A stretch of DNA of 32,150 nt from IMG/VR virus record IMGVR_UViG_3300020044_008460, positions 1 to 32,150 of that record. One strand, written 5' to 3'. The notes beneath the pieces are model-generated. The model searched no databases, was not told the origin of the DNA, and saw only the letters and a program-made list of their open reading frames with translations. This DNA comes from a virus (taxonomy: Duplodnaviria > Caudoviricetes). Made by a program: the position numbers and the translations under genes. Below are positions 4,024 to 29,224 of this stretch, in pieces (positions within the stretch are counted from its first letter, which is position 1; every line of letters starts with the position of its first letter).

Positions 4024-6323
4024 TATTTACCTCCTTGAGAGGTCGGTGTTCCGACGCCAGCCCAGGTATTCGGCGTGCCCGGCATACCGGGGAGTCCCGA
4101 AGTGTTATTCCCGAAGGTCGACATGATATTTCCTACCTGACTGGAGAGTTGCGTGAGCGGGTTTATTCCAATATTCTGCCAGCCGGAGATAGCGTTGTTA
4201 ATCGCGTTCCCCTGCTGCGAAACACCGTTGTTCATCGCGCCGAAGATGTTGTTAAATCGCTGCTGGCCGAGTTGGCCGGAACTGATTCCAAGCTGGCCCA
4301 GGTTGCTTCCGGCATTACCGGCGAGTTGTCCAGCGCCGAGACCGTAGTTTTGAGCCGCCGTGTTAGCCGCGCCGGAAAGTTCGGAGCCTTTTAGCGCAGT
4401 ATTCAGCCAGTTGGATAGGAAGTTCCCGCCGAGGTTCATGCGGTTCGTTTGATCCGTGGAAGCGCCGAGACCGAGTTGGCCGAGAGTCCCGGCGTTATTC
4501 GTAGCCGCGCCCTGGGCTCCCGTCTGAAGTTTCAGAGCTTCGAGTAACCGGTTTGTTTGAAGGTTTTCCAGGTTACTGAGCCCCGAGAAACCGGTGTTCG
4601 CCCGGTCGGTAGCAAGAGCGGTTCCTTTTCCAAGCAAGTCGCCGCCGGTCGAGAATCGGGAAGCCGCTACGCCTTCGAGGCCTTTGAGGAGGTCGGCGTA
4701 GGTTCCGAGTGTGCCGCGCTCTAATTCGCCCGAAGCTGCACCCATGGCGCTGCCGGTTTTCAAATAATCCATCAACACATTCTGCTGTTTCGCCCGGGCG
4801 TCGTTACCCGCGGCGGATTCGGCGCGGAGAGCTTGGTCGGCGAAGTCTGCCATACCTTGGTTCTGCGATCCCGAAGCGACGATAGAACCGGGGCCTCCGC
4901 CCCGTGCCAGAGCGCGAGCGCGGACGGACTCACCCTGTTGAGCGGCGGCAGTAGCGGCGGCGTCACGGGCGGCAGACACGGCGTCTTCGAGAGACATCGT
5001 GGGGTTGGTTTTGAGGATTTCGAGGGCTTTTTGCTGGAGGGCTTGGGAGGTAGCCGTCGCGCCTCCGTTCTGGAGACCTTGTAGTGCGGCGAGTTCGCCC
5101 ACTGCTCCGGTGTTGGTGAGACCCCCGACGCCGAGATTTCCCGTTAAGGCGTTCTGACCCGCGGCGTCCAGGGCTTGCGTGCCCTTGGTGGCCCCGCCGT
5201 TCATGAGCATTGCCAGAGCCTGCTGAATCCCCGTCTGCGACCCAGCAGTGGCCCCTCCCTGCGCCTGGATGCCCTGTGCGCCGCTTAAAACTGAACGAAG
5301 GATGTCCGTTAACCCCCCGTCGTTCACAGCGTTTAGGGCCCGATCTTGCACGCCGCGGTTAAAATCAGTACCGCCGCCGGTATTTAACAGATTCTGCCCG
5401 ATATTTGAAAACGCCTTCATCGGGTCATTCTGCCCGGTGGCAAACTCCTGCCCCTGTTCGAAAAGTTGATTTCCTTTATTCGTCCAGCCGCCGTTTCCGA
5501 AGATCCCGGAGGCCCCGCTTAGGATATCCCGAAGGCTACCACCAGCGGCTTCCGTATCGGCGTTTCCGAAAGAGCCGCCGTATTGTTCCATCAGGCCGGG
5601 GATTAAATCCGAAAGGCCGAAGGCGGAGTTCATATACGGGTCGATACCGCGATTCGCTGCTCCGCCGAAAGCATTTGCGCCTTGATTTGCTTGATCGCGA
5701 AGATCGCCAGCTATACTTGCGTAGTTATTTTTCCAAGCATCGTACTCGCCGCGCCCGAAGTTCAGGTTGTTTACATAAGCCCCGCGGAGCCAGTCGAGGG
5801 CTTGCTGGTTTCCGATACCGTTGTAGACGTCGCCGAAGAGGTTTCCGAGGCTACCGGCGGTTCCGAGGAGTTGATTTATTGTGGCGAGGGCTCCGGGAAG
5901 AGTCGCCTTAGCCGCATTAGCCGCATTCGCCGCAGCACCCGCACCTCCAGAAGAATTTGCTCCCGTGCCCGGCGTAGAAGCATTCGGGTTAAACCCAGGA
6001 GTTCCCCCAGGCCCAGAGCCTCTACCCTGACCCCCGCCTAGAATCAAGCTGACTACATCTGCCCAAGATGACACGTTATTTGCTCCCGCTCCTGTGGTAT
6101 TGCCCTGCCCCGGATAATTACCCGGGTAGAAGTTCGAATACTGCCCGCCGCCATAGCCCGCGCCGAAGGGGTCGTAGATACCACCACCGCCCCAGCCGTC
6201 GTTCCAGCCGCCCCAGCCGCCGCTATTCCAGCCGCCCGGACCACCCCAGCCATCCCACATCGGGTTATCATAGGGATCGCCCCCGCCACCGAAGACGTTG
6301 GATAAAAAAGATTGCAGGCTCAA
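4023..6323 (-). CDS. Gly/Ala/Asn-rich internal virion (ejection/pilot-type) protein
   Basis: 766 aa ORF with a TTG start. It is very rich in G/A/N/Q/L and has a Trp-Gly low-complexity N-terminus. It follows the nozzle gene, as podovirus pilot proteins do. Confidence 0.55.
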   Translation of the reverse strand: MSLQSFLSNVFGGGGDPYDNPMWDGWGGPGGWNSGGWGGWNDGWGGGGIYDPFGAGYGGGQYSNFYPGNYPGQGNTTGAGANNVSSWADVVSLILGGGQGRGSGPGGTPGFNPNASTPGTGANSSGGAGAAANAANAAKATLPGALATINQLLGTAGSLGNLFGDVYNGIGNQQALDWLRGAYVNNLNFGRGEYDAWKNNYASIAGDLRDQANQGANAFGGAANRGIDPYMNSAFGLSDLIPGLMEQYGGSFGNADTEAAGGSLRDILSGASGIFGNGGWTNKGNQLFEQGQEFATGQNDPMKAFSNIGQNLLNTGGGTDFNRGVQDRALNAVNDGGLTDILRSVLSGAQGIQAQGGATAGSQTGIQQALAMLMNGGATKGTQALDAAGQNALTGNLGVGGLTNTGAVGELAALQGLQNGGATATSQALQQKALEILKTNPTMSLEDAVSAARDAAATAAAQQGESVRARALARGGGPGSIVASGSQNQGMADFADQALRAESAAGNDARAKQQNVLMDYLKTGSAMGAASGELERGTLGTYADLLKGLEGVAASRFSTGGDLLGKGTALATDRANTGFSGLSNLENLQTNRLLEALKLQTGAQGAATNNAGTLGQLGLGASTDQTNRMNLGGNFLSNWLNTALKGSELSGAANTAAQNYGLGAGQLAGNAGSNLGQLGISSGQLGQQRFNNIFGAMNNGVSQQGNAINNAISGWQNIGINPLTQLSSQVGNIMSTFGNNTSGLPGMPGTPNTWAGVGTPTSQGGK

Positions 6324-12442: not shown

Positions 12443-12883
12443 TTAAAAGTCCGGACCACCAACAGTAGACGGGTCAGGTCGCAGGTGCATCGGAAGGCCC
12501 CCGGTAGCCGGGTCGTTTCCAGTGAACTCTTTCTGACAAGCCTGACAAAGCCAGTGGTAGGTACGGTGCGAATCGCGCTGGCCGACGACCGCGGTCTTCC
12601 CGTTCTCTTTCAGGTGGAAACACGCAGCCTGAGCCGCGGCTCGCTGGGCTTTACCCTTCTCTAACTGCTGGACGGTGGAGAGTCGTAACGACTGCCCCTC
12701 CGCCTTCTTCTGAGCCTGAACCGCCAGGGCTTCTTCCTGAAGCGCCAACTGCTGCTCCAACTGTTGAATCTGAAGAAGTTCGCGCCGCTTCTGGAGATCG
12801 GCGAGTTCCGGATCATAAGACCCGTTGTTAGGAGGACGAACTGGAGGAGCCGCGGTGATGTTGATTTGATTTTTGTCCGACAT
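12443..12883 (-). CDS. coiled-coil protein with putative Zn-binding C-terminus
   Basis: Q/L/E-rich heptad region followed by CFH...H...CQAC. Confidence 0.6.
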   Translation of the reverse strand: MSDKNQINITAAPPVRPPNNGSYDPELADLQKRRELLQIQQLEQQLALQEEALAVQAQKKAEGQSLRLSTVQQLEKGKAQRAAAQAACFHLKENGKTAVVGQRDSHRTYHWLCQACQKEFTGNDPATGGLPMHLRPDPSTVGGPDF

Positions 12884-12887
12884 ACGC

Positions 12888-13337
12888 CTATTCTACCTTG
12901 AAGATGAAACCAGTAGCCGCTTCCAAATCGTCCCACTTGCCCGACCAGGGGACGGTGGCTCCCATGCGCGAATACGCCCAGCGAGCGGGTTTCGAACGCG
13001 CGTCGATGTGGATGTAGTTCTGCCAGGGGTTTACTCCCAGGCCTTTTAACTCCGGGTGTTGGAGGATGGCGTTGAAGAGAGCTTTTAGCGAAAGGCTCGG
13101 GCAGTGGATGTCGGCGGCGATTCCGTAGGTGTGGGCGGAGAATGACCCCGGGGGTTTGGATCGCTCAACCGGGTGAGCCGCGCATCGGAAGCCGGAGTTG
13201 ATTATCAAAGGCCGGGAGATTTCGTCTCTTAGCTTTTGCACTAACCGGACGAATGACATTTCTGCCCGACAAACCCCGCAGTGCTTACAGGAGAATTCGT
13301 CGACCGAGAAGTTAGGAGTCAGCATTTTCTTCGTCAC
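12888..13337 (-). CDS. peptidase M15 family endolysin (Zn D-Ala-D-Ala peptidase fold)
   Basis: Canonical M15A motifs: NFSVDEFSCKHCG, INSGFRC, SAHTYGIAADI and YIHIDAR. Confidence 0.9.
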   Translation of the reverse strand: MTKKMLTPNFSVDEFSCKHCGVCRAEMSFVRLVQKLRDEISRPLIINSGFRCAAHPVERSKPPGSFSAHTYGIAADIHCPSLSLKALFNAILQHPELKGLGVNPWQNYIHIDARSKPARWAYSRMGATVPWSGKWDDLEAATGFIFKVE

Positions 13338-13996
13338 GCCGGGGTCCCTTCGATGTCTGTTCTCCGACCGGTATGAACCGCCCAGCCGCGAGAGCCGCCG
13401 CAGCCGAAGGTCTTTTCGACTTGGTCCAGGTCAAGCTCGCCGGATTCGAGGAGATATAGAAGAACCGTTCGATAGCCGCGTTTAACTTCCGACCAGGGGA
13501 TATCGACCGCTTCTTCGTGAGGCCGGAGACCGTCGAATTTAAACTCGCCAGCCTCCTCATCCCAATGCGCTTTTGGAAAATCGGCTCTTTCCAAATGATG
13601 ATGAAGATGCCCGCCCTTCGTCGTCAACGTGTTATCCGAGTTCTGCACCACCTCGGTCTTCCGCGATCTCAACGAATACTCCGGCATCCAACCGCTTTCG
13701 TAAACGCAAATCGGCTCTGCCACACCGCGCCGCTCGACAAAAACCACCCGCTTATCCGGTTTCAGAGGTAACGTGCGAAAACGAAGCCGTGCGTTTAAAC
13801 GCGCGACCTTCTTCTCGAACTCCTCCGTATTCATCCCGGTGGCTAGGCGAGCTTGCGAAGTCGGGTCATCGGCTGTGTCGATCCACACGGATTGGGCGAG
13901 AGTCGCTTCCTTGTGTTTCTCCAGCCGCTCGAAATACGCCGAAATTAAGGCTTCTTCAGCTAACGCTGCTAGTTTTTGCTCATCGCGGATTATCAT
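13334..13996 (-). CDS. hypothetical phage protein
   Basis: 220 aa ORF overlapping both neighbours. No family recognised. Confidence 0.6.
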   Translation of the reverse strand: MIIRDEQKLAALAEEALISAYFERLEKHKEATLAQSVWIDTADDPTSQARLATGMNTEEFEKKVARLNARLRFRTLPLKPDKRVVFVERRGVAEPICVYESGWMPEYSLRSRKTEVVQNSDNTLTTKGGHLHHHLERADFPKAHWDEEAGEFKFDGLRPHEEAVDIPWSEVKRGYRTVLLYLLESGELDLDQVEKTFGCGGSRGWAVHTGRRTDIEGTPA

Positions 13997-14702
13997 GGGT
14001 TTCTTTAATTTCCAGTGTTTGTTGGGCTTTTCGACGTTCCCAGTATTGTTTCATCTTACGGGATCGATCCTGTCGCCACTCGACTGACCTTATTCTCCCA
14101 CGCTCTGCATTACCTAGAGCCATCCTATGTTCTTCAGAAGCCCATCGTCGAGTTTTTGCCGATTTGGCGATATTCGCACAGGCTGTTTTCGATTTACTAA
14201 CACCTCTTAGCGCGGTCGCAATTTTATCTCTTGTCTCTTGCGGAACTGTCTTTCCTTTCCAATAGCCCGGTTTACTGTTTCGTTTCCGTGAATCCATTCG
14301 ATTTTTAATATGTTCCGGTGTTTGAGGTCCGGGAGATTTTCGCGGATGGGGTTTTCCCAATTGCCGATTGCGGGCGGCAAGACGCATTTCATCGGTCCAT
14401 ACAGTTCGTATTCCGCCCGCAGTCATGTTGTATCCAACTTCACGATTTGTGCTGTTAGTTGCCGCAATATGGAATATTTCACGTTCGTCCAATTGAGCAT
14501 CCGGTACTTCTTCAATTACCGCGATTGTGAAGTTTTCGCTTCCGTTTTTATGCAAGGCTCTTGTGATAAGAGGAGTTTTTACATTTAGCGGTTTTGTTGA
14601 TAGTAGGATATGATCACGCCAACGATACTTCAGTTTGCGGGTTGTCTGGCCTATGTAAATTTTCCCGTTCAGGATGTTGGTGATCTGGTAGATTAATCCC
14701 AT
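13980..14702 (-). CDS. GIY-YIG homing endonuclease with NUMOD3-like DNA-binding repeats
   Basis: GLIYQITN...KIYIGQT, conserved R and E residues, and GYNMTAGG. The basic C-terminus has KGKTVPQETRDKIA-type motifs. It is visibly more AT-rich than its flanks. Confidence 0.92.
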   Translation of the reverse strand: MGLIYQITNILNGKIYIGQTTRKLKYRWRDHILLSTKPLNVKTPLITRALHKNGSENFTIAVIEEVPDAQLDEREIFHIAATNSTNREVGYNMTAGGIRTVWTDEMRLAARNRQLGKPHPRKSPGPQTPEHIKNRMDSRKRNSKPGYWKGKTVPQETRDKIATALRGVSKSKTACANIAKSAKTRRWASEEHRMALGNAERGRIRSVEWRQDRSRKMKQYWERRKAQQTLEIKETHDNPR

Positions 14703-20954: not shown

Positions 20955-21329
20955 TTATTCTACACCTATACGGGGAGCGAGTAGCGCGTCGTCGGTATCC
21001 TGCGGCCAGTCGATGTCGAGGGATTCGGAGACGCCGGGGGTGAATAAGGCGGCGGTTGCGGTCGGGTCGACGCTTTGTCGGAGGGCAAGTTGGATTGAGA
21101 GGGGTTGATATTTGAGGTTGAAGAGGATGCGGCGGAAGGCTCTTAGGTAACCGAGGTAGCGGGCTTCTTGCTCAGGCCGGAGGTCGAAGGATTCAAGTAG
21201 CCCGACGGTGTTGTCGATTTCGCTTTGCAGTAGATCGCACAAAATACGGAACCCGGGCGTCTCCGTGGTGTGTAGAAACGCCCGTTGTTCCTCAAGATTT
21301 AGCGCGCGCTGTTCTTTTTGTTCTTCCAT
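20955..21329 (-). CDS. small head-associated protein between portal and scaffold
   Basis: 124 aa and helical (TPGFRILCDLL...YLGYLRAFRRIL). A small helical gene at this position is common in podoviruses. Confidence 0.6.
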   Translation of the reverse strand: MEEQKEQRALNLEEQRAFLHTTETPGFRILCDLLQSEIDNTVGLLESFDLRPEQEARYLGYLRAFRRILFNLKYQPLSIQLALRQSVDPTATAALFTPGVSESLDIDWPQDTDDALLAPRIGVE

Positions 21330-23861: not shown

Positions 23862-25655
23862 TCACAGGCCCCCGGTTTTCGCGAGGTCGGGGTGCATGTG
23901 TGTGGAGTCGGAGCCGGAATCGAAGTCGCCGGTTAAGCCGAGCATACGGGCGAATTGGCGTTGACGGTAGGCGTCGGCGGGGGCTAGGGTGTTCGAGATC
24001 ACTTGTTCGATGTGCGTCGGGTCTTGTCGCGCGTTTAAACGTCCGAGCCACTCTTTACCTTTGTAAAAAGCCGCGAGGGTGTCAAGGATGTCGTCGGAGA
24101 GCGGTTTGGGCATACCGGAGAGTTCGCTCAACAGGACTTCCTTTTCTTTCAAATCGTCGAGGAAGATGATCTGCTTTGTCATGTACGGGTATTGGAGGGT
24201 CCGGACGATGTTCTCGGTCTTCGACTTCGTGTTGTCGATCTTAACCGTTTCGAGAGGAATGTGGAGGCCGCGTTGGTCGCAGTATTGGCGGAAGCCGAGC
24301 ATTAAGCCTGTGACGTAAGCCGTTTCTTCAATAGCGACCCGCACGAAGCCGTTACGCGACTTTCGCTGGTAAGTGGTATACGCGGCTATGATCTGGGCGA
24401 TTAACTCCGCGGCGAGCCATTTCCCGCGGCGTATGTCGACGATGTAGAGCCTCCCGGCGTTGTCCCAGGCTCCGATGGTTATTACCGAGTGATTCGACCT
24501 GTCTCCGATGGTTTGAGCCGAGTCGACGCGCATTTCATAATGGGAGACGAGGACGCGCTGCTCGAAGTCCTGTCGAGACTTCCAAGCCGGGTATTTATCG
24601 TCGACAGGGAAGATCGTTTGCCCGCCCGCGGCGTGGTTCGGGAAGTTGAACTTCTGGCACGACACCAGATACGGGTCCATGGCGTATTCGGACAAAATAC
24701 CATCTGCCGGGAAGCGATCCGGCCAGATTGAAATGGGGAGTTTGTTCTCATCCAGCAAATCCGGGAGCCGAACCTCCGCGTAGGTGTAGTTTCTCGGCCT
24801 CCCACCAGTGTCTTTCTTGAAAATCCCCCGGACGAAGATGTTCCAGTCGCGTTTCTCCTCCGGCAGCATCTCCTGGCCGCGGATAATCTCGCCGTAGGTG
24901 TCTTTTTCGTCGTATCGGGTACCTTCGACGTCGATCCAGAAGCGCGGGGAGACCAAGAGGTTCTGGGAAAGGACGAATTTACGGAAAATCGTCTTGCAAA
25001 TCTCCGCGTTGTTCGAGTTATTTTCATCGACGATGTCGGAATACTTCATCAAGTCAAAGTGCGACCCGGCGAGACCTTTTTCGATAGATGCACCGCGGAC
25101 GGTAGGCTCTTTTCGGGTCACCGCACGGCCTCTTGCCCGCGTTGTGAACTCTGCTTGGGTGCCGAAAGACTCGACTTTTTTCAAATCGGGGCAGTGTTCG
25201 GGGAATAACTCGCGGAAACGGGGGTTTTTCGTGAAGTGGTTTTTGATTTCCGAGATAATGTCCTCGGCTTTGTCTAAGTTAGCCTGGATGATGGCGATTG
25301 CGATGTCGGGGTAGTTGATGATCCACTGTAGGGTGTGGGAAATGGCGTTGAGGGTCGTCTTTAGACAGCCGCGGGAGTCTAAAATTAACAAACGCCGCTT
25401 CCCCGGAAGGTCCATCATGGGGATTAACGGTCGATACTCCCAGGTTCCGTTGACGAAGCGGTCGTTTTGCTCGATAGTTACGGAGTCGGGGCTAGGGAAT
25501 TTCTGTAAACGGGATAAAAGCGGCCCATGAACTTCCTCCGACACATCCCTATACCCCAAAATCTCATTCGCAAACCACCGTAAATCCGTCCGCGCCTTCC
25601 ATCGTGCGATTCGAATCCGCTTAATCCGCTCATCCATTGACAGTTCGCTACTCAT
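23862..25655 (-). CDS. terL: terminase large subunit
   Basis: Walker A-like LILDSRGCLKTT, Walker B region AGSHFDLMKYSDIV, coupling motif VEGTRY, and nuclease motifs MRVDSA...IEETAY...SDDILD. It lies upstream of the portal. Confidence 0.92.
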   Translation of the reverse strand: MSSELSMDERIKRIRIARWKARTDLRWFANEILGYRDVSEEVHGPLLSRLQKFPSPDSVTIEQNDRFVNGTWEYRPLIPMMDLPGKRRLLILDSRGCLKTTLNAISHTLQWIINYPDIAIAIIQANLDKAEDIISEIKNHFTKNPRFRELFPEHCPDLKKVESFGTQAEFTTRARGRAVTRKEPTVRGASIEKGLAGSHFDLMKYSDIVDENNSNNAEICKTIFRKFVLSQNLLVSPRFWIDVEGTRYDEKDTYGEIIRGQEMLPEEKRDWNIFVRGIFKKDTGGRPRNYTYAEVRLPDLLDENKLPISIWPDRFPADGILSEYAMDPYLVSCQKFNFPNHAAGGQTIFPVDDKYPAWKSRQDFEQRVLVSHYEMRVDSAQTIGDRSNHSVITIGAWDNAGRLYIVDIRRGKWLAAELIAQIIAAYTTYQRKSRNGFVRVAIEETAYVTGLMLGFRQYCDQRGLHIPLETVKIDNTKSKTENIVRTLQYPYMTKQIIFLDDLKEKEVLLSELSGMPKPLSDDILDTLAAFYKGKEWLGRLNARQDPTHIEQVISNTLAPADAYRQRQFARMLGLTGDFDSGSDSTHMHPDLAKTGGL

Positions 25656-26139
25656 TTTCGCTCCAGATGACCTTAACCGGGGGTAGGAGAGGCCAGAAAT
25701 TGACCTTCGTCCGTATCTTCGTCTCGCCTTTGTTCAAAGCCATGATCGCCATGAAGGTGTAGTTGCCTTTAAAAAGCCCTTGGTAGTGGGGTATAGACTC
25801 CCAATCGCCTTCGGAGGGTGCGGTTTCGCAGTAGAAGCCGGTTTCCTTCGTCGAACAGTGGGAGTGGATGTCTCCAACTACTACCAAATCATCCACCTGC
25901 GCCGTCCTCTCAACCTCCGACAACCACTCCTCCGACGGCATTACCACCCACTGCGTCGATCTCACCGTCTCCTCCTTCGGACACAGCAACATCTCGACAA
26001 CCTCCACCACATCCGGCTCGTCGAAAACGCCAAGGAAAACCCCGTATATTTCCTTGGGAAAAGCCTTCTTAGCCGCGTGCCGAAATTCCTGAATTAACTT
26101 CGGGTTGCAGCGGATTTCAAAAGCTGGAGGGGTCGGCAC
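25648..26139 (-). CDS. JAB/MPN+ (JAMM, Mov34-like) metallopeptidase
   Basis: FPKEIYGVFLG supplies the catalytic Glu and VVGDIHSH...APSEGD supplies HxH...SxxD, so the JAMM motif is complete. Confidence 0.88.
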   Translation of the reverse strand: MPTPPAFEIRCNPKLIQEFRHAAKKAFPKEIYGVFLGVFDEPDVVEVVEMLLCPKEETVRSTQWVVMPSEEWLSEVERTAQVDDLVVVGDIHSHCSTKETGFYCETAPSEGDWESIPHYQGLFKGNYTFMAIMALNKGETKIRTKVNFWPLLPPVKVIWSENE

Positions 26140-26148
26140 ATAGGTATT

Positions 26149-26313
26149 CTACTCGGTGTTCACAACCGGCGCGCTTTCGGGGGTGGCGGAACCGGGCGTA
26201 ATAGCCGCGCGGAAGTCTTGGCGAGCCGTGATAACCCCGTAGACAGGCCCGGGAACGGCCCCAGAATCGTCGTAGAGGTCTTCGTCGAAGAGAAAGGTGT
26301 CGAAGAGGCTCAT
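26149..26313 (-). CDS. 54 aa hypothetical protein (not in the ORF track)
   Basis: ATG at 26313 to TAG at 26149 gives MSLFDTFLFDEDLYDDSGAVPGPVYGVITARQDFRAAITPGSATPESAPVVNTE. It exactly fills the gap between two genes. Confidence 0.6.
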   Translation of the reverse strand: MSLFDTFLFDEDLYDDSGAVPGPVYGVITARQDFRAAITPGSATPESAPVVNTE

Positions 26314-26317
26314 GGGG

Positions 26318-27901
26318 TTAACCGAGGCTTAGGTACCATTTAGAGTCGGTGGCGTTGTAGACTCCGCGGACGGGTTGATTGGCGTAGGTGGTGGTGACGA
26401 GGACTTTTACATTGCCGGTGGCGTCAAAGGTGAGGCCGGAAGGGCAGAGGAAGATGACTTCGTGACCGGTGCCGTAGAAGCCGTTGATTGTCTTAATCGT
26501 CGTCGTGCCCGAGACGGTGATGATTCGGGGTAGCGAAGTGGGGAGAGTGACGGTGTTCGCCGCGGTTAAAGTTCCGTTCACCGTCGTCGCGCCGATGTTA
26601 TTTGAAACTGCCCAGGAGGTGCGGGTCGTTGCGCCGTCGTAGATGTCCTGGGTTGTGTTCCCCGTCGTGATGTTCCCGGACATATTAAGTTTCGTTAACG
26701 TCCCGTCGAGTTTAATTCCATAAGCGTTGGAGGCGGAGATACAGCCTTGGATGATAACGGAGGATGATGTGCCGCCGAGATAAATACCGCTACCCCCCGC
26801 AACAGCTACGTCGTTTGATACGGAGGTTACGTTTTGAATCGTCGTGGTGTCGACGTTGGTCGCGTAGATGCCGGAGGCTCGACAGAGGCCGATACGACAG
26901 TTTCGGACGGTGAGTCCGGAGAATGTATCGGTCGCGATTCCGTAAAAGCCGCCGAGGATTTGTAAATTCTCCACCGTCGGGGTGCCGGAAGTTGCGCCGA
27001 CGAGAGAAAGAGCGGAGGCCGTGGGGGTTGTTACGCCGGAGTAGGTGGTGGAGAATCCGCGGAGGGACCAGAATTGGGTGGTCGAGGTCGTGTAGAAGAT
27101 CGGGTTATCTGTCGTTTGTTGGATGTTACAACCCAAACGCTCCCCCGCGAGGGTTACGGAGTTAACGGACCCGCCGAGGTAAATGCGTTGTCGAATCGTC
27201 GAAATACCGGCTGGAATCTGAACAACGCCGCCGCCGGAGATCGTTTCGGTGTAGCGAACGGCTTCTTGGATACCCGCCGTGGCGGAACCGAGCGTCCATT
27301 GATTCGCCGTGTGGGAGTTCGCCGGGGTGAATCCGACGGTCGTGGAGGAAGCCCCGACGGTTACGGAGGTGAGCAGGACAGATTCGGAAGACGCGCCGTC
27401 GGTAATGTAGAGGTAGTGGGTGTTTACAGAAGCCGCGGTAATGCCTGCGGGAGAAGGGGTGATGATGGCGGTAGCCGGGGTCGCGCCGGTCAGTGCCGTG
27501 GTGCCGGAGAAGGAAAAGGTGAAGCCGTCGGCGTTGTTTACTTTTGAGACGAAGCGGAGGTTCGCACCGAGAGCAGTTTCGACGGCGATTAGTTCGTCAG
27601 CGAGGACGTTGTGATGCGCGGCGACTACATTCGCGCGGACGGAGACTCCGGAGTTATGAGCCGCGGCTGTGGAGCCGTCATAGGCCCGGGTGCAGTTGAT
27701 GTACGTCCCGGATACGGAGATCGTGCCGAGTAGAATTCGTTCGTTTTCAATCGTGACGACGGAGTAGGCCGAAAACACCCCGGAGTTTACGACAACTGTA
27801 GTAGCCCCCGAGGAGATCGTCCCTAGCAAAGTCGTCGACGCGCGATTATCCGCGGCGATTAGAGTCGCATCAGTCGCTACGGTCGTCGGGTATGCAGGCA
27901 T
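26318..27901 (-). CDS. tailspike / beta-helix (pectin lyase-like) receptor-binding protein
   Basis: TAGIQEAV...GGGVVQIPAG is the usual beta-helix cap. It is followed by repeats (TVRNCRI, TIQNVT, IIQGCIS, MSGNITTGN). The N-terminus is a virion-attachment-type region. Confidence 0.8.
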   Translation of the reverse strand: MPAYPTTVATDATLIAADNRASTTLLGTISSGATTVVVNSGVFSAYSVVTIENERILLGTISVSGTYINCTRAYDGSTAAAHNSGVSVRANVVAAHHNVLADELIAVETALGANLRFVSKVNNADGFTFSFSGTTALTGATPATAIITPSPAGITAASVNTHYLYITDGASSESVLLTSVTVGASSTTVGFTPANSHTANQWTLGSATAGIQEAVRYTETISGGGVVQIPAGISTIRQRIYLGGSVNSVTLAGERLGCNIQQTTDNPIFYTTSTTQFWSLRGFSTTYSGVTTPTASALSLVGATSGTPTVENLQILGGFYGIATDTFSGLTVRNCRIGLCRASGIYATNVDTTTIQNVTSVSNDVAVAGGSGIYLGGTSSSVIIQGCISASNAYGIKLDGTLTKLNMSGNITTGNTTQDIYDGATTRTSWAVSNNIGATTVNGTLTAANTVTLPTSLPRIITVSGTTTIKTINGFYGTGHEVIFLCPSGLTFDATGNVKVLVTTTYANQPVRGVYNATDSKWYLSLG

Positions 27902-28537: not shown

Positions 28538-29224
28538 TTAGAAAGCGTAGGCCGCAACTCCGTCAACGGAGTTCAAAGCCATATAGAGATTGAACTGTTC
28601 TCGGTTGTTGCCACGAATACCGAATTTTGCGTGGAAGCCTTTGTGGCATGGCTTGCACAGCGGAGCGCCGTTACCCACATCAACCCGAAGAGATGGGTAA
28701 TCCCGGTAATTCATTATGTGGTGGCAGTCCAATTTATTTCCCCTAGATTGCCTGGATAGGCAGACAATACAGGTAGACCCGTTTGCCGCCAATACAGCAA
28801 CCCTCCACTCTAGGTAGCCTTTTTGCATCAGGCGATTGTTAACTGGGTTATCTCGATCTTCCTGTGAAATGGATGGGTTATAGTTTGGATGCCATTCTAG
28901 CTTTGCCATGCGACATTTGTGGCATATTGGCGTCTGTTCAGTGTGTTTCTTGGTCATCACTGCCGAGCAACTTGAACACTTCGGGTATTGGCTGGCAGTA
29001 AAGGCGGTGCGGCACTGCATACATCTAGAATACTTTGAGTAGCACTTTTTACCGCAGTCAACGCACGGCTTGATGGTATTTCCTGGGATAGCGCAAGCCC
29101 TGATAGCCTTCCTGTAGCAAGTCACGCACTCCGCCATTTTCGACGCAGCGCACGCTGGGCCTTTGCAGGTTGCGCACTCCTTCTTGCGGTATCCGAAAAC
29201 GGGATGTGTCTCAAACTTCGGCAT
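28538..29224 (-). CDS. HNH endonuclease with multiple CxxC zinc-binding motifs
   Basis: WRVAVL...CIVC...LDCHHI...NGAPLCKPCHKGFH, preceded by six CxxC motifs. Confidence 0.9.
   Translation of the reverse strand: MPKFETHPVFGYRKKECATCKGPACAASKMAECVTCYRKAIRACAIPGNTIKPCVDCGKKCYSKYSRCMQCRTAFTASQYPKCSSCSAVMTKKHTEQTPICHKCRMAKLEWHPNYNPSISQEDRDNPVNNRLMQKGYLEWRVAVLAANGSTCIVCLSRQSRGNKLDCHHIMNYRDYPSLRVDVGNGAPLCKPCHKGFHAKFGIRGNNREQFNLYMALNSVDGVAAYAF

Follow-up and report, generated by a model that had tools for sequence, protein, structure and literature searches.

A stand-alone JAMM peptidase gene next to the terminase gene of a podovirus, with a possible role in removing host ubiquitin-like tags

Results

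A JAMM peptidase gene upstream of terL

The window, by which we mean the whole analysed stretch of 32,150 nucleotides (IMG/VR record IMGVR_UViG_3300020044_008460), comes from a tailed phage whose portal and adaptor are SU10-like, as in a podovirus. Its features are listed in Table 1. A stand-alone JAMM/MPN+ metallopeptidase gene (JAB) lies between a fibre-like gene, which is replaced by other genes in other lineages, and the large terminase gene terL. The original prediction had described a 163-aa JAMM protein with an intact motif, and all five residues are indeed present in the order E30...H92-S-H94...P-S109-E-G-D112, with a score of 29 bits against the Pfam Prok-JAB model (PF14464; cut-off 25). 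The span first given for the gene, 25648..26151, was too long at one end, since the GTG start lies at 26139 and position 26151 is the outer edge of the TAGAAT box. Both the overlap with terL and the leaderless-type GTG with its own box were seen as described. The gap between H94 and S109 is 14 residues compared with 7 in the canonical HxH-x7-S-x2-D arrangement, a feature that the earlier reader had missed.

Table 1. Positions of JAB and associated features in the window
Feature	Position	Strand	Remarks
TAGAAT + 6 nt + start (third)	12890..12895	minus	precedes 146-aa gene and adaptor genes
TAGAAT + 6 nt + start (second)	20957..20962	minus	precedes 255-aa scaffold-like gene, itself before the major capsid gene
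Large terminase gene (terL)	23862..25655	minus	ATG overlaps JAB stop by 8 nt (25648-25655)
Stand-alone JAMM/MPN+ metallopeptidase gene (JAB)	25648..26139	minus	163 aa, GTG start
JAB D112	25804-25806	minus	Asp of SxxD
JAB S109	25813-25815	minus	Ser of SxxD
JAB H94	25858-25860	minus	second His of HxH
JAB H92	25864-25866	minus	first His of HxH
JAB E30	26050-26052	minus	predicted catalytic residue
TAGAAT -10-like box of JAB	26146..26151	minus	6 nt before GTG; inferred promoter, leaderless-type layout
Beta-helix fibre-like gene	26318..27901	minus	upstream, 178 nt before JAB start; context only

The overlap makes translational coupling of JAB and terL likely. The TAGAAT box of JAB is identical in 5/5 close copies, and of the six TAGAAT sites on the coding strand three, those of JAB, the scaffold gene and the 146-aa gene, are followed by a start codon after exactly 6 nt, against a rough expectation of 0.03. 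This arrangement suggests that regulation of JAB is shared with structural genes, and the matching promoter layout of the scaffold gene makes late expression of JAB plausible.

Ten pairwise comparisons among five close copies gave dN/dS values of 0.045-0.083 for JAB, compared with 0.037-0.077 for the major capsid gene, showing that JAB is under purifying selection about as tight as that on the capsid gene. The predicted structure (pLDDT 94.3) has an MPN fold and matched PfJAMM1 (5ld9) best, with Z 15.8 and an rmsd of 1.6 over 119 residues. JAB is apparently an active stand-alone JAMM peptidase.

Search for a partner

As the original prediction had stated, none of the 35 ORFs of the window gave a Pfam or PHROGs match to NlpC/P60, a ubiquitin-like protein (Ubl), E1 or E2. 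ThiF and ThiS were each found in 0/26 records in a scan in which positive controls were detected; genome G346 was not among these records. In G346, where 76/98 picked ORFs were scanned with Pfam, a 352-aa ORF matched E1_FCCH, and this was not taken as an E1 because ThiF-type domains were unmatched. Repeats of the E1_FCCH type occur in tail proteins. Neither the window nor the neighbour families that were scanned contained a CD-NTase, Cap2 or effector. Among near-complete clade genomes no co-inherited partner was found: JAB itself was the only gene family common to three JAB-positive lineages and absent from five JAB-negative genomes. Host BilA proteins go unrecognised by Pfam, so a divergent phage Ubl could be overlooked. 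These scans support the view that JAB is an orphan, with no phage-encoded Ubl or E1 partner detected by models that could miss a divergent Ubl.

A large family of single-domain phage JABs

JAB belongs to a large, mostly phage-borne family of single-domain proteins in which an additional loop separates HxH from SxxD. At E 1e-10 it comprised 303 clusters, a count that may take in other JAB subfamilies. The catalytic five (E, H, H, S, D) were kept in 126/128 gap-free new representatives, which had been gathered without a motif filter; loci recovered by a GDIHSH pattern were left out of these conservation claims. The loop measured 10-26 residues in 119 of the 126 representatives, whereas host Mec-type JABs and lambda gpK have 7 residues there. 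The best 150 representatives were 98-195 aa long, and none of them carried an HhH or helicase fusion; a weak search for longer fused forms likewise found none. The family, or a sister subfamily, also occurs in a T4-like phage, in PolA podoviruses and in long-tailed proviruses, often amid nucleotide or DNA-metabolism genes, and its recurrence in unrelated phage lineages points to a substrate common to their hosts. When 50,697 phage records were searched by tblastn, neither the window JAB nor a copy from the T4-like group gave a match.

Comparison with named JAB systems

The closest known structures are stand-alone JAMMs. PfJAMM1, the Caldiarchaeum Rpn11 homologue (6fnn; Z 13.9) and the structural-genomics entries 2kks and 2kcq (Z 10.8) have the same single-domain MPN+ fold with E...HxH...SxxD, and the two last-named, both bacterial, were the top sequence matches among solved structures. 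The window JAB differs from this group in its low identity (18-22%), its loop of 14 rather than 7 residues, and its location in a phage genome with no detected Ubl or E1. BilC (8tyy; Z 11.9) and BubC (9ea5, a BubCD structure; Z 11.7) share the fold and the catalytic set; unlike BilC, JAB is on the phage side and stands outside a bilABCD operon (Ubl, E2, DUB, E1). PADLOC BilC models matched 21/68 family members weakly (best E 4.7e-8). Cap3 of type II CBASS (9ild) also shares the fold, with Z 13.2 and an rmsd of 2.5 over 127 residues, but is only 11% identical, and JAB has no CD-NTase, Cap2 or effector nearby. Searches with Cap3/JAB models gave only weak PADLOC JAB matches (best family E 2.8e-7), and no NCBIfam model came near its cut-off.

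In the tree, three host-class BilC proteins split from all members of the JAB family on a long branch with a support of 96, the deeper nodes being unresolved. Host Mec-type JABs, which sit in a CysM-Mec-CysO-MoeZ operon that the phage copies do not have, formed a clade of their own apart from the window JAB (support 99.8, 7-residue spacing). Lambda gpK could be included only as a 62-residue piece and was placed on a very long branch. The original prediction had proposed a comparison with Cap3, BilC, gpK, Mec+ and RadC; the structure is nearest to PfJAMM1, and the tree, which covered BilC, Mec-type and gpK sequences, splits off BilC and Mec. The family appears to fit no named family (gpK, Cap3, BilC or Mec).

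Distribution among related phages

In 20/80 related loci, and in 8/35 lineages, JAB lay upstream of terL at a distance of no more than 4 kb; in 19 of these 20 loci it overlapped or abutted terL. Ten near-complete clade genomes comprised four with JAB in this slot, five without any, and one with a distant JAB elsewhere. An unrelated HExxH zincin, SprT-like (27 bits in locus L037, where it spans 4062-4409), occupied the slot in five loci, while 48/80 loci and five near-complete clade genomes had neither gene. High-scoring HExxH zincins of the clade were found in the slot only. JAB and zincin never occurred together in it, which with five zincin loci is not statistically significant. Many relatives either lack JAB or have a zinc peptidase of unrelated origin at its position, so JAB is an accessory gene, and its patchy distribution is what would be expected of a counter-defence gene. 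The proposed coupling to the terminase stands only as gene order, and only within this clade; other phage lineages carry the family at other places.

JAB identity followed TerL identity (Spearman 0.79; 45 non-independent pairs). Because JAB tracks TerL and is under selection as tight as that on the capsid gene, it has been retained vertically for a long time, unlike fast-turnover anti-defence genes, and this counts against an anti-defence reading.

Gly-Gly-x termini

Gly-Gly-x C-termini, which had been put forward as sites of self-processing, are real in four of 34 window proteins, with about one expected (P 0.018, post hoc). They are not linked to JAB in relatives. The TGGL end of TerL is found clade-wide, with GG-L in 3/8 JAB lineages and 10/27 others (P 1.0). 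In the 146-aa protein, GGP is found at the end whether JAB is present or absent, and the GG end of the 109-aa protein is lost in its closest relatives. For the 766-aa protein the GG-x end occurred only in the window and in genome G018, and in 0/4 near-complete JAB-positive genomes. Self-processing at these ends was dropped for all four proteins.

Defence systems of the inferred hosts

The host is inferred to be a member of the Acidobacteriota; a search for proviruses with the clade capsid in 301 host-class genomes, run with no positive control, gave no match. BilC was matched in 3/301 genomes of this class, and both loci inspected held a full Ubl-E2-JAB-E1 operon. Bil operons, as recognised by these matches, exist in the inferred hosts but are rare. 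A Cap2 model (PDLC00827) gave no match in the 301 genomes, with controls also silent. Acidobacteria genomes also hold a CysM-JAB-Ubl(GG+tail)-E1 operon.

Discussion

Recent work has shown that bacteria can ruin the assembly of phages through conjugation of ubiquitin-like proteins. We tentatively favour the reading, with a probability of roughly 0.4, that JAB is an accessory deconjugase which takes host ubiquitin-like tags off proteins and so blunts a defence such as Bil. JAB would head a leaderless JAB-terL-portal transcript and be produced alongside structural genes. By analogy with PfJAMM1, BilC and Cap3, H92, H94 and D112 would be the zinc ligands, with E30 activating water. The enzyme would then cut the peptide or isopeptide bond after the C-terminal Gly by which a host modifier (BilA-type Ubl or CD-NTase) is attached to phage or host proteins; alternatively it would trim the modifier in its free form. 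Target preference may depend on the long, variable loop that follows HxH, and removal of the tag would take place during the virion-building phase.

In its favour, Bil operons exist in the inferred host class, BilC is described as cleaving Ubl-target conjugates (10.1101/2023.09.26.559546), and the closest near-complete relative carries Gad1 as well as a weak Tad2-like match. DUB domains in tail-assembly proteins have been speculated to be anti-Bil (Hor et al., 10.1101/2023.09.04.556158). Several observations count against the deconjugase reading. The Bil targets described in the latter preprint are central tail fibres of siphophages, and 'podo' is absent from that preprint. Deconjugation by Cap3 is described as changing cGAMP output only negligibly in vitro (PMC10097602). 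Few genomes of the host sample carry Bil, and the anti-defence genes recognised in the closest near-complete relative sit in the early region rather than at the JAB slot.

An auxiliary packaging or head-assembly protease, which would trim or recycle a phage protein such as TerL, portal or scaffold, cutting elsewhere than at Gly-Gly, and could be replaced by a small HExxH zincin, would account for the contact with terL, the co-divergence with TerL and the zincin in the same slot of five loci. Relatives in other lineages fit it as well: L078 has one between terL and portal, L137 one that separates portal from scaffold and L098 one next to terS, and others lie upstream of terL by 2-5 kb. We nevertheless think it unlikely, as so many loci and near-complete genomes lack both peptidases at this position, the Gly-Gly-x ends do not track JAB, and other family members lie amid replication genes. 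Zincins are also very common in phages, where the largest clusters reach 1,392 members. A predicted JAB-TerL complex scored 0.00 in a run made without controls, which speaks neither for nor against contact. A metabolic role is improbable in our estimation: a Mec-like enzyme would act on a housekeeping sulfur-carrier Ubl of the host (CysO/MoaD type), freeing cysteine, priming the carrier or stopping thiolation. The CysM-JAB-Ubl-E1 operon of the hosts offers a far commoner Gly-Gly substrate than BilA, and 2kcq and 2kks are the best sequence matches of known structure; against this, host Mec-type JABs cluster apart, sulfur-metabolism genes are absent near all phage copies examined, and a late position would be odd for a metabolic gene.

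There is also little likelihood that JAB is a zinc amidohydrolase acting, as has been proposed for RadC-type JABs, on a non-Ubl substrate such as a small molecule, a nucleotide adduct or a DNA-protein crosslink. Isopeptidases of proven activity match its structure better (Z 12-16) than RadC does (2qlc; Z 9.5), and the HhH and helicase fusions are missing from the best 150 representatives. The neighbours of long-tailed and T4-like carriers (among them dGTP diphosphohydrolase, dNMP kinase, metallophosphoesterases, exonucleases) nonetheless suit such a function, as do the SprT-like alternative slot gene and nucleic-acid roles argued for some JABs (PMC3239186), and the family-specific loop could reshape the active site. 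Far less credible is a tail-assembly peptidase of the lambda gpK type whose Ubl partner would be encoded at another genomic position. Both are phage-encoded JAB domains of the same fold, and sister genes in cultivated phages are annotated as tail proteins (see below). TAPK, however, is described as JAB plus NlpC/P60 flanked by TAPI and TAPJ (PMC1779556), and gpK lies amid gpL, the Ubl gpI and gpJ; the window JAB is a short protein with no NlpC/P60, is dispensable, has no partner that could be found, and sits in the packaging module of a podovirus between a fibre-like gene and terL. The departure from gpK noted in the original prediction is borne out, and a gpK-type identity is already contradicted by architecture.

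A broader form of the deconjugase reading is that Acidobacteriota phages keep a late de-tagging slot before the terminase, in which either a long-loop JAMM or a SprT-like HExxH zincin would strip host ubiquitin-like conjugates off virions as they assemble. We regard this as doubtful; if true, the slot would be to phages what deubiquitinases and deISGylases are to animal viruses, and would counter Bil-type immunity. In the literature covered (titles and abstract openings, with subscription journals mostly outside that coverage), no stand-alone phage JAMM and no demonstrated removal of conjugates by a phage was found. The JAB family is a clean candidate for a phage tag remover, being single-domain, orphan, optional, large and intact in its catalytic residues, and should packaging or sulfur metabolism be served instead, it would still be a new phage peptidase family.

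Two cultivated phages of Acidobacteriota whose host, Tunturiibacter, is known, Tunturi_3 (gp141, XOB77322.1) and Tunturi_5 (gp271, XOB77714.1), encode intact stand-alone JABs that matched the family profile with E 1e-14 and 7e-19, respectively. These proteins differ from the window JAB in belonging to a short-loop sister subfamily, in lying away from terL and in being annotated 'minor tail protein'. Tunturi_3 is also the top cultivated match to the window capsid protein (27%). As cultivated phages carry these sister genes, the question is testable.

Gene layout and conservation

All genes of the window, which covers 32 kb of a podovirus-type genome, were carried on the minus strand, and included an SU10-like portal and adaptor, a T7-like TerL, a capsid gene and an M15 endolysin. 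The open reading frame and its Pfam match confirmed the predicted intact gene for a stand-alone JAMM/MPN+ peptidase (hereafter JAB), which has its own TAGAAT box and overlaps the start of terL by 8 nt. TAGAAT, 6 nt and a start codon also preceded a scaffold-like gene and the gene for a 146-aa protein, which together with JAB makes 3 of 6 coding-strand sites versus about 0.03 expected, and a -10-like hexamer resembling the box was seen by eye at several distant JAB copies. This layout suggests a leaderless promoter common to JAB and structural genes. Among five close copies dN/dS of JAB was 0.045-0.083, similar to the capsid gene. A small terminase gene was recognised neither in the window nor directly upstream of terL in relatives. 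The closest relatives were without the two homing endonuclease genes at the places that these occupy in the window.

Coordinates of JAB and other features (plain positions, window; L numbers, loci of relatives, other carriers or host-class DNA)
Feature	Position	Strand	Remark
JAB ORF, 163 aa, GTG start	26139..25648	minus	Pfam Prok-JAB over cut-off (29 bits)
TAGAAT box	26146-26151	minus	six bases upstream of JAB GTG
Zincin, 110-140 aa, HExxH (SprT-like)	L028:4147-4479, L034:3825-4247, L037:4062-4409, L042:3407-3766, L239:3618-3986		directly upstream of terL
Tunturi_3 gp141	L307:4989-5435		intact stand-alone JAB, outside any tail module
Tunturi_5 gp271	L308:3998-4483		intact stand-alone JAB, outside any tail module
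JAB of G347, 134 aa	L295:10111-10515		after metallophosphoesterase gene
Orphan JAB copies, open frames	L123, L124, L127, L084:9857-10444, L093		Acidobacteria-like DNA
146-aa protein	12443-12883		coiled coil; C-H...C-x2-C putative zinc finger; conserved GGP end
TerL C-terminal end	23862-23876		(R/K)TGGL or TG-x-hydrophobic, widespread in clade
GIY-YIG and HNH homing endonuclease genes	13980-14702 and 28538-29224		within structural region
Gad1 of G346	L291:14378-15415		over cut-off; early region
Tad2-like, G346	L292:12190-12561		weak match; early region
ClpB-like AAA protein of G346	L291:10847-11908
Gene pair in two JAB-bearing relatives	L005:402-1868, L006:1987-4292		by eye; presumably nicotinamide phosphoribosyltransferase and PRPP-synthetase-like protein (NAD salvage)

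Fold and family

The structure model of JAB, built from a 68-sequence alignment, was confident (pLDDT 94.3) and matched PfJAMM1 best (Z 15.8, rmsd 1.6, 119 residues), followed by 2kks (13.9), BRCC36 (13.6), Cap3 (13.2), Rpn11 (13.1), BilC (11.9), BubCD (11.7) and RadC (9.5); Foldseek ranked a Caldiarchaeum Rpn11-ubiquitin complex first. On modelled fold and catalytic set (E30, H92, H94, S109, D112), JAB is assigned to the MPN+ superfamily and is predicted to act in the manner of stand-alone JAMM isopeptidases. When 1.84 billion representatives were searched with the family profile, 303 matched at E 1e-10, and every one of the best 150 was single-domain (98-195 aa). Among the 131 new representatives within these 150, all five catalytic residues were kept in 126 of 128 gap-free rows, and in 119 of the 126 the HxH-to-SxxD spacing was 10-26 residues versus the canonical 7. 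None of the NCBIfam and PADLOC JAB models fitted at family level. In the phylogeny, which resolved the shallower nodes only, the window JAB fell outside two separate host clades, one of Mec-type JABs and the other of BilC proteins. By their defining operons or architecture gpK, BilC and Mec exclude JAB, and the Cap3 operon was absent around it.

No description of the family was found in the literature searched, at the level of titles and listings apart from the papers cited. The gene is real and, as modelled, a variant of a known enzyme kind with a predicted function; new here are the long-loop family definition, the record of JAB presence and absence across complete genomes, the finding that a zincin can take the position of JAB, the dismissal of self-processing at Gly-Gly, and the availability of cultivated phages with sister JABs for a test.

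Distribution and host

A TerL profile search gave 140 loci; of the best 80, 20 had JAB no more than 4 kb upstream of terL, 19 of them directly upstream (the slot). An unrelated zincin filled the slot in 5, neither was found in 48, 7 were truncated, and none of the 80 held both. At 55% TerL identity, with truncated loci dropped, there were 35 lineages (8 JAB, 4 zincin, 23 other). High-scoring zincins were met only in the slot, in relatives without JAB; mutual exclusivity is suggestive only, the numbers being small and zincins common phage genes. Ten near-complete clade genomes comprised four with slot JAB (G020, G021, G022, G346), five with no JAB (G001, G004, G005, G348, G349), and G347, complete and without slot JAB, which carried a distant short-loop type among replication genes. 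The next gene after that copy encodes 174 aa, terS-like by eye and without Pfam match. A TerL+portal tree with 29 loci gave 6 changes of JAB presence, and JAB identity followed TerL identity (rho 0.79). Judged from these comparisons, JAB has probably long occupied the slot, with frequent loss or replacement.

The proposed JAB-terL linkage, which held within the clade, did not extend across the family. The family or its short-loop sister lay a few genes upstream of terL in PolA-carrying podoviruses, after a 3'-5' exonuclease gene in T4-like phages, between tail and replication genes in long-tailed proviruses, and elsewhere between the terL and portal genes (L078), ahead of a scaffold gene (L137) or next to terS (L098), with orphan copies in varying chromosomal contexts. 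Because of these other sites, terminase linkage is a trait of the clade and not of the family.

Acidobacteria MAGs made up 4 of 5 genome matches, and among 301 genomes sampled from that class a single provirus copy reached family-level score. The top cultivated match of the window capsid was Tunturiibacter phage Tunturi_3 (27%); Tunturi_3 and Tunturi_5 each encode a sister JAB that is intact and bears the annotation 'minor tail protein'. From the MAG matches, the capsid match and these sister JABs, we infer that the host is probably an acidobacterium (Acidobacteriota). The terms JAB, Mov34 and peptidase do not occur in the main text of the Tunturi isolation paper (PMC11924767).

Partner genes and candidate substrates

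The original observation of no Ubl or E1 gene stood beyond the window: none of 26 phage records, 12 of which were at least 90% complete, matched ThiF or ThiS, for which 14 and 12, respectively, of the 14 control genomes were positive, and whole-genome comparison at BLASTP sensitivity left JAB as the sole family common to three JAB-bearing lineages and missing from five genomes without it. BilA-type Ubls escape Pfam, and a divergent phage Ubl could escape likewise. The alternative claim, that JAB cuts the phage's own proteins at Gly-Gly-x, was rejected, as these ends did not track JAB in any of four proteins: TerL ended in GG-L in 3 of 8 JAB lineages versus 10 of 27 others, the 146-aa protein end occurred with and without JAB, the 109-aa protein end was not conserved, and the 766-aa protein end was missing from 4 of 4 near-complete JAB-bearing genomes.

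A host-supplied modifier would be the simplest target, because JAB has an intact JAMM motif and no home partner, is dispensable for virion assembly, recurs in unrelated phages and is apparently expressed with structural genes. Counter-defence deconjugation is our leading, still tentative, reading (probability about 0.4). BilC is described as cutting Ubl-target conjugates (10.1101/2023.09.26.559546), and the Bil discoverers, who report a hit on tail assembly, speculate that phage tail DUB domains oppose it (10.1101/2023.09.04.556158). Against this, BilC was matched in only 3 of 301 genomes of the inferred host class, the Bil targets described in 10.1101/2023.09.04.556158 are siphophage proteins, JAB has been kept long and vertically, and Cap3 deconjugation is reported to have barely altered cGAMP output in vitro (PMC10097602). 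An auxiliary packaging protease, to be set beside the slot position and the other sites of the family, is unlikely. Somewhat less probable still are action on host sulfur-carrier Ubls, a CysM-JAB-Ubl-E1 operon also being present in the inferred host class, and, on a par with it, a non-Ubl substrate of the kind considered in PMC3239186. A gpK role (PMC1779556), from which the architecture departs, is very improbable.

The two BilC loci read (L207, L208), in two Acidobacteria genomes, were Ubl-E2-JAB-E1 operons, full bilABCD-type with an upstream XRE-like regulator, and their Ubls had no Pfam match. G346, the closest near-complete relative, carried the Gad1, Tad2-like and ClpB-like genes tabulated. 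The 146-aa protein was found in all clade genomes compared and gave nothing over the Pfam cut-off. The TerL end we take, by analogy, to be possibly a portal-docking tail.
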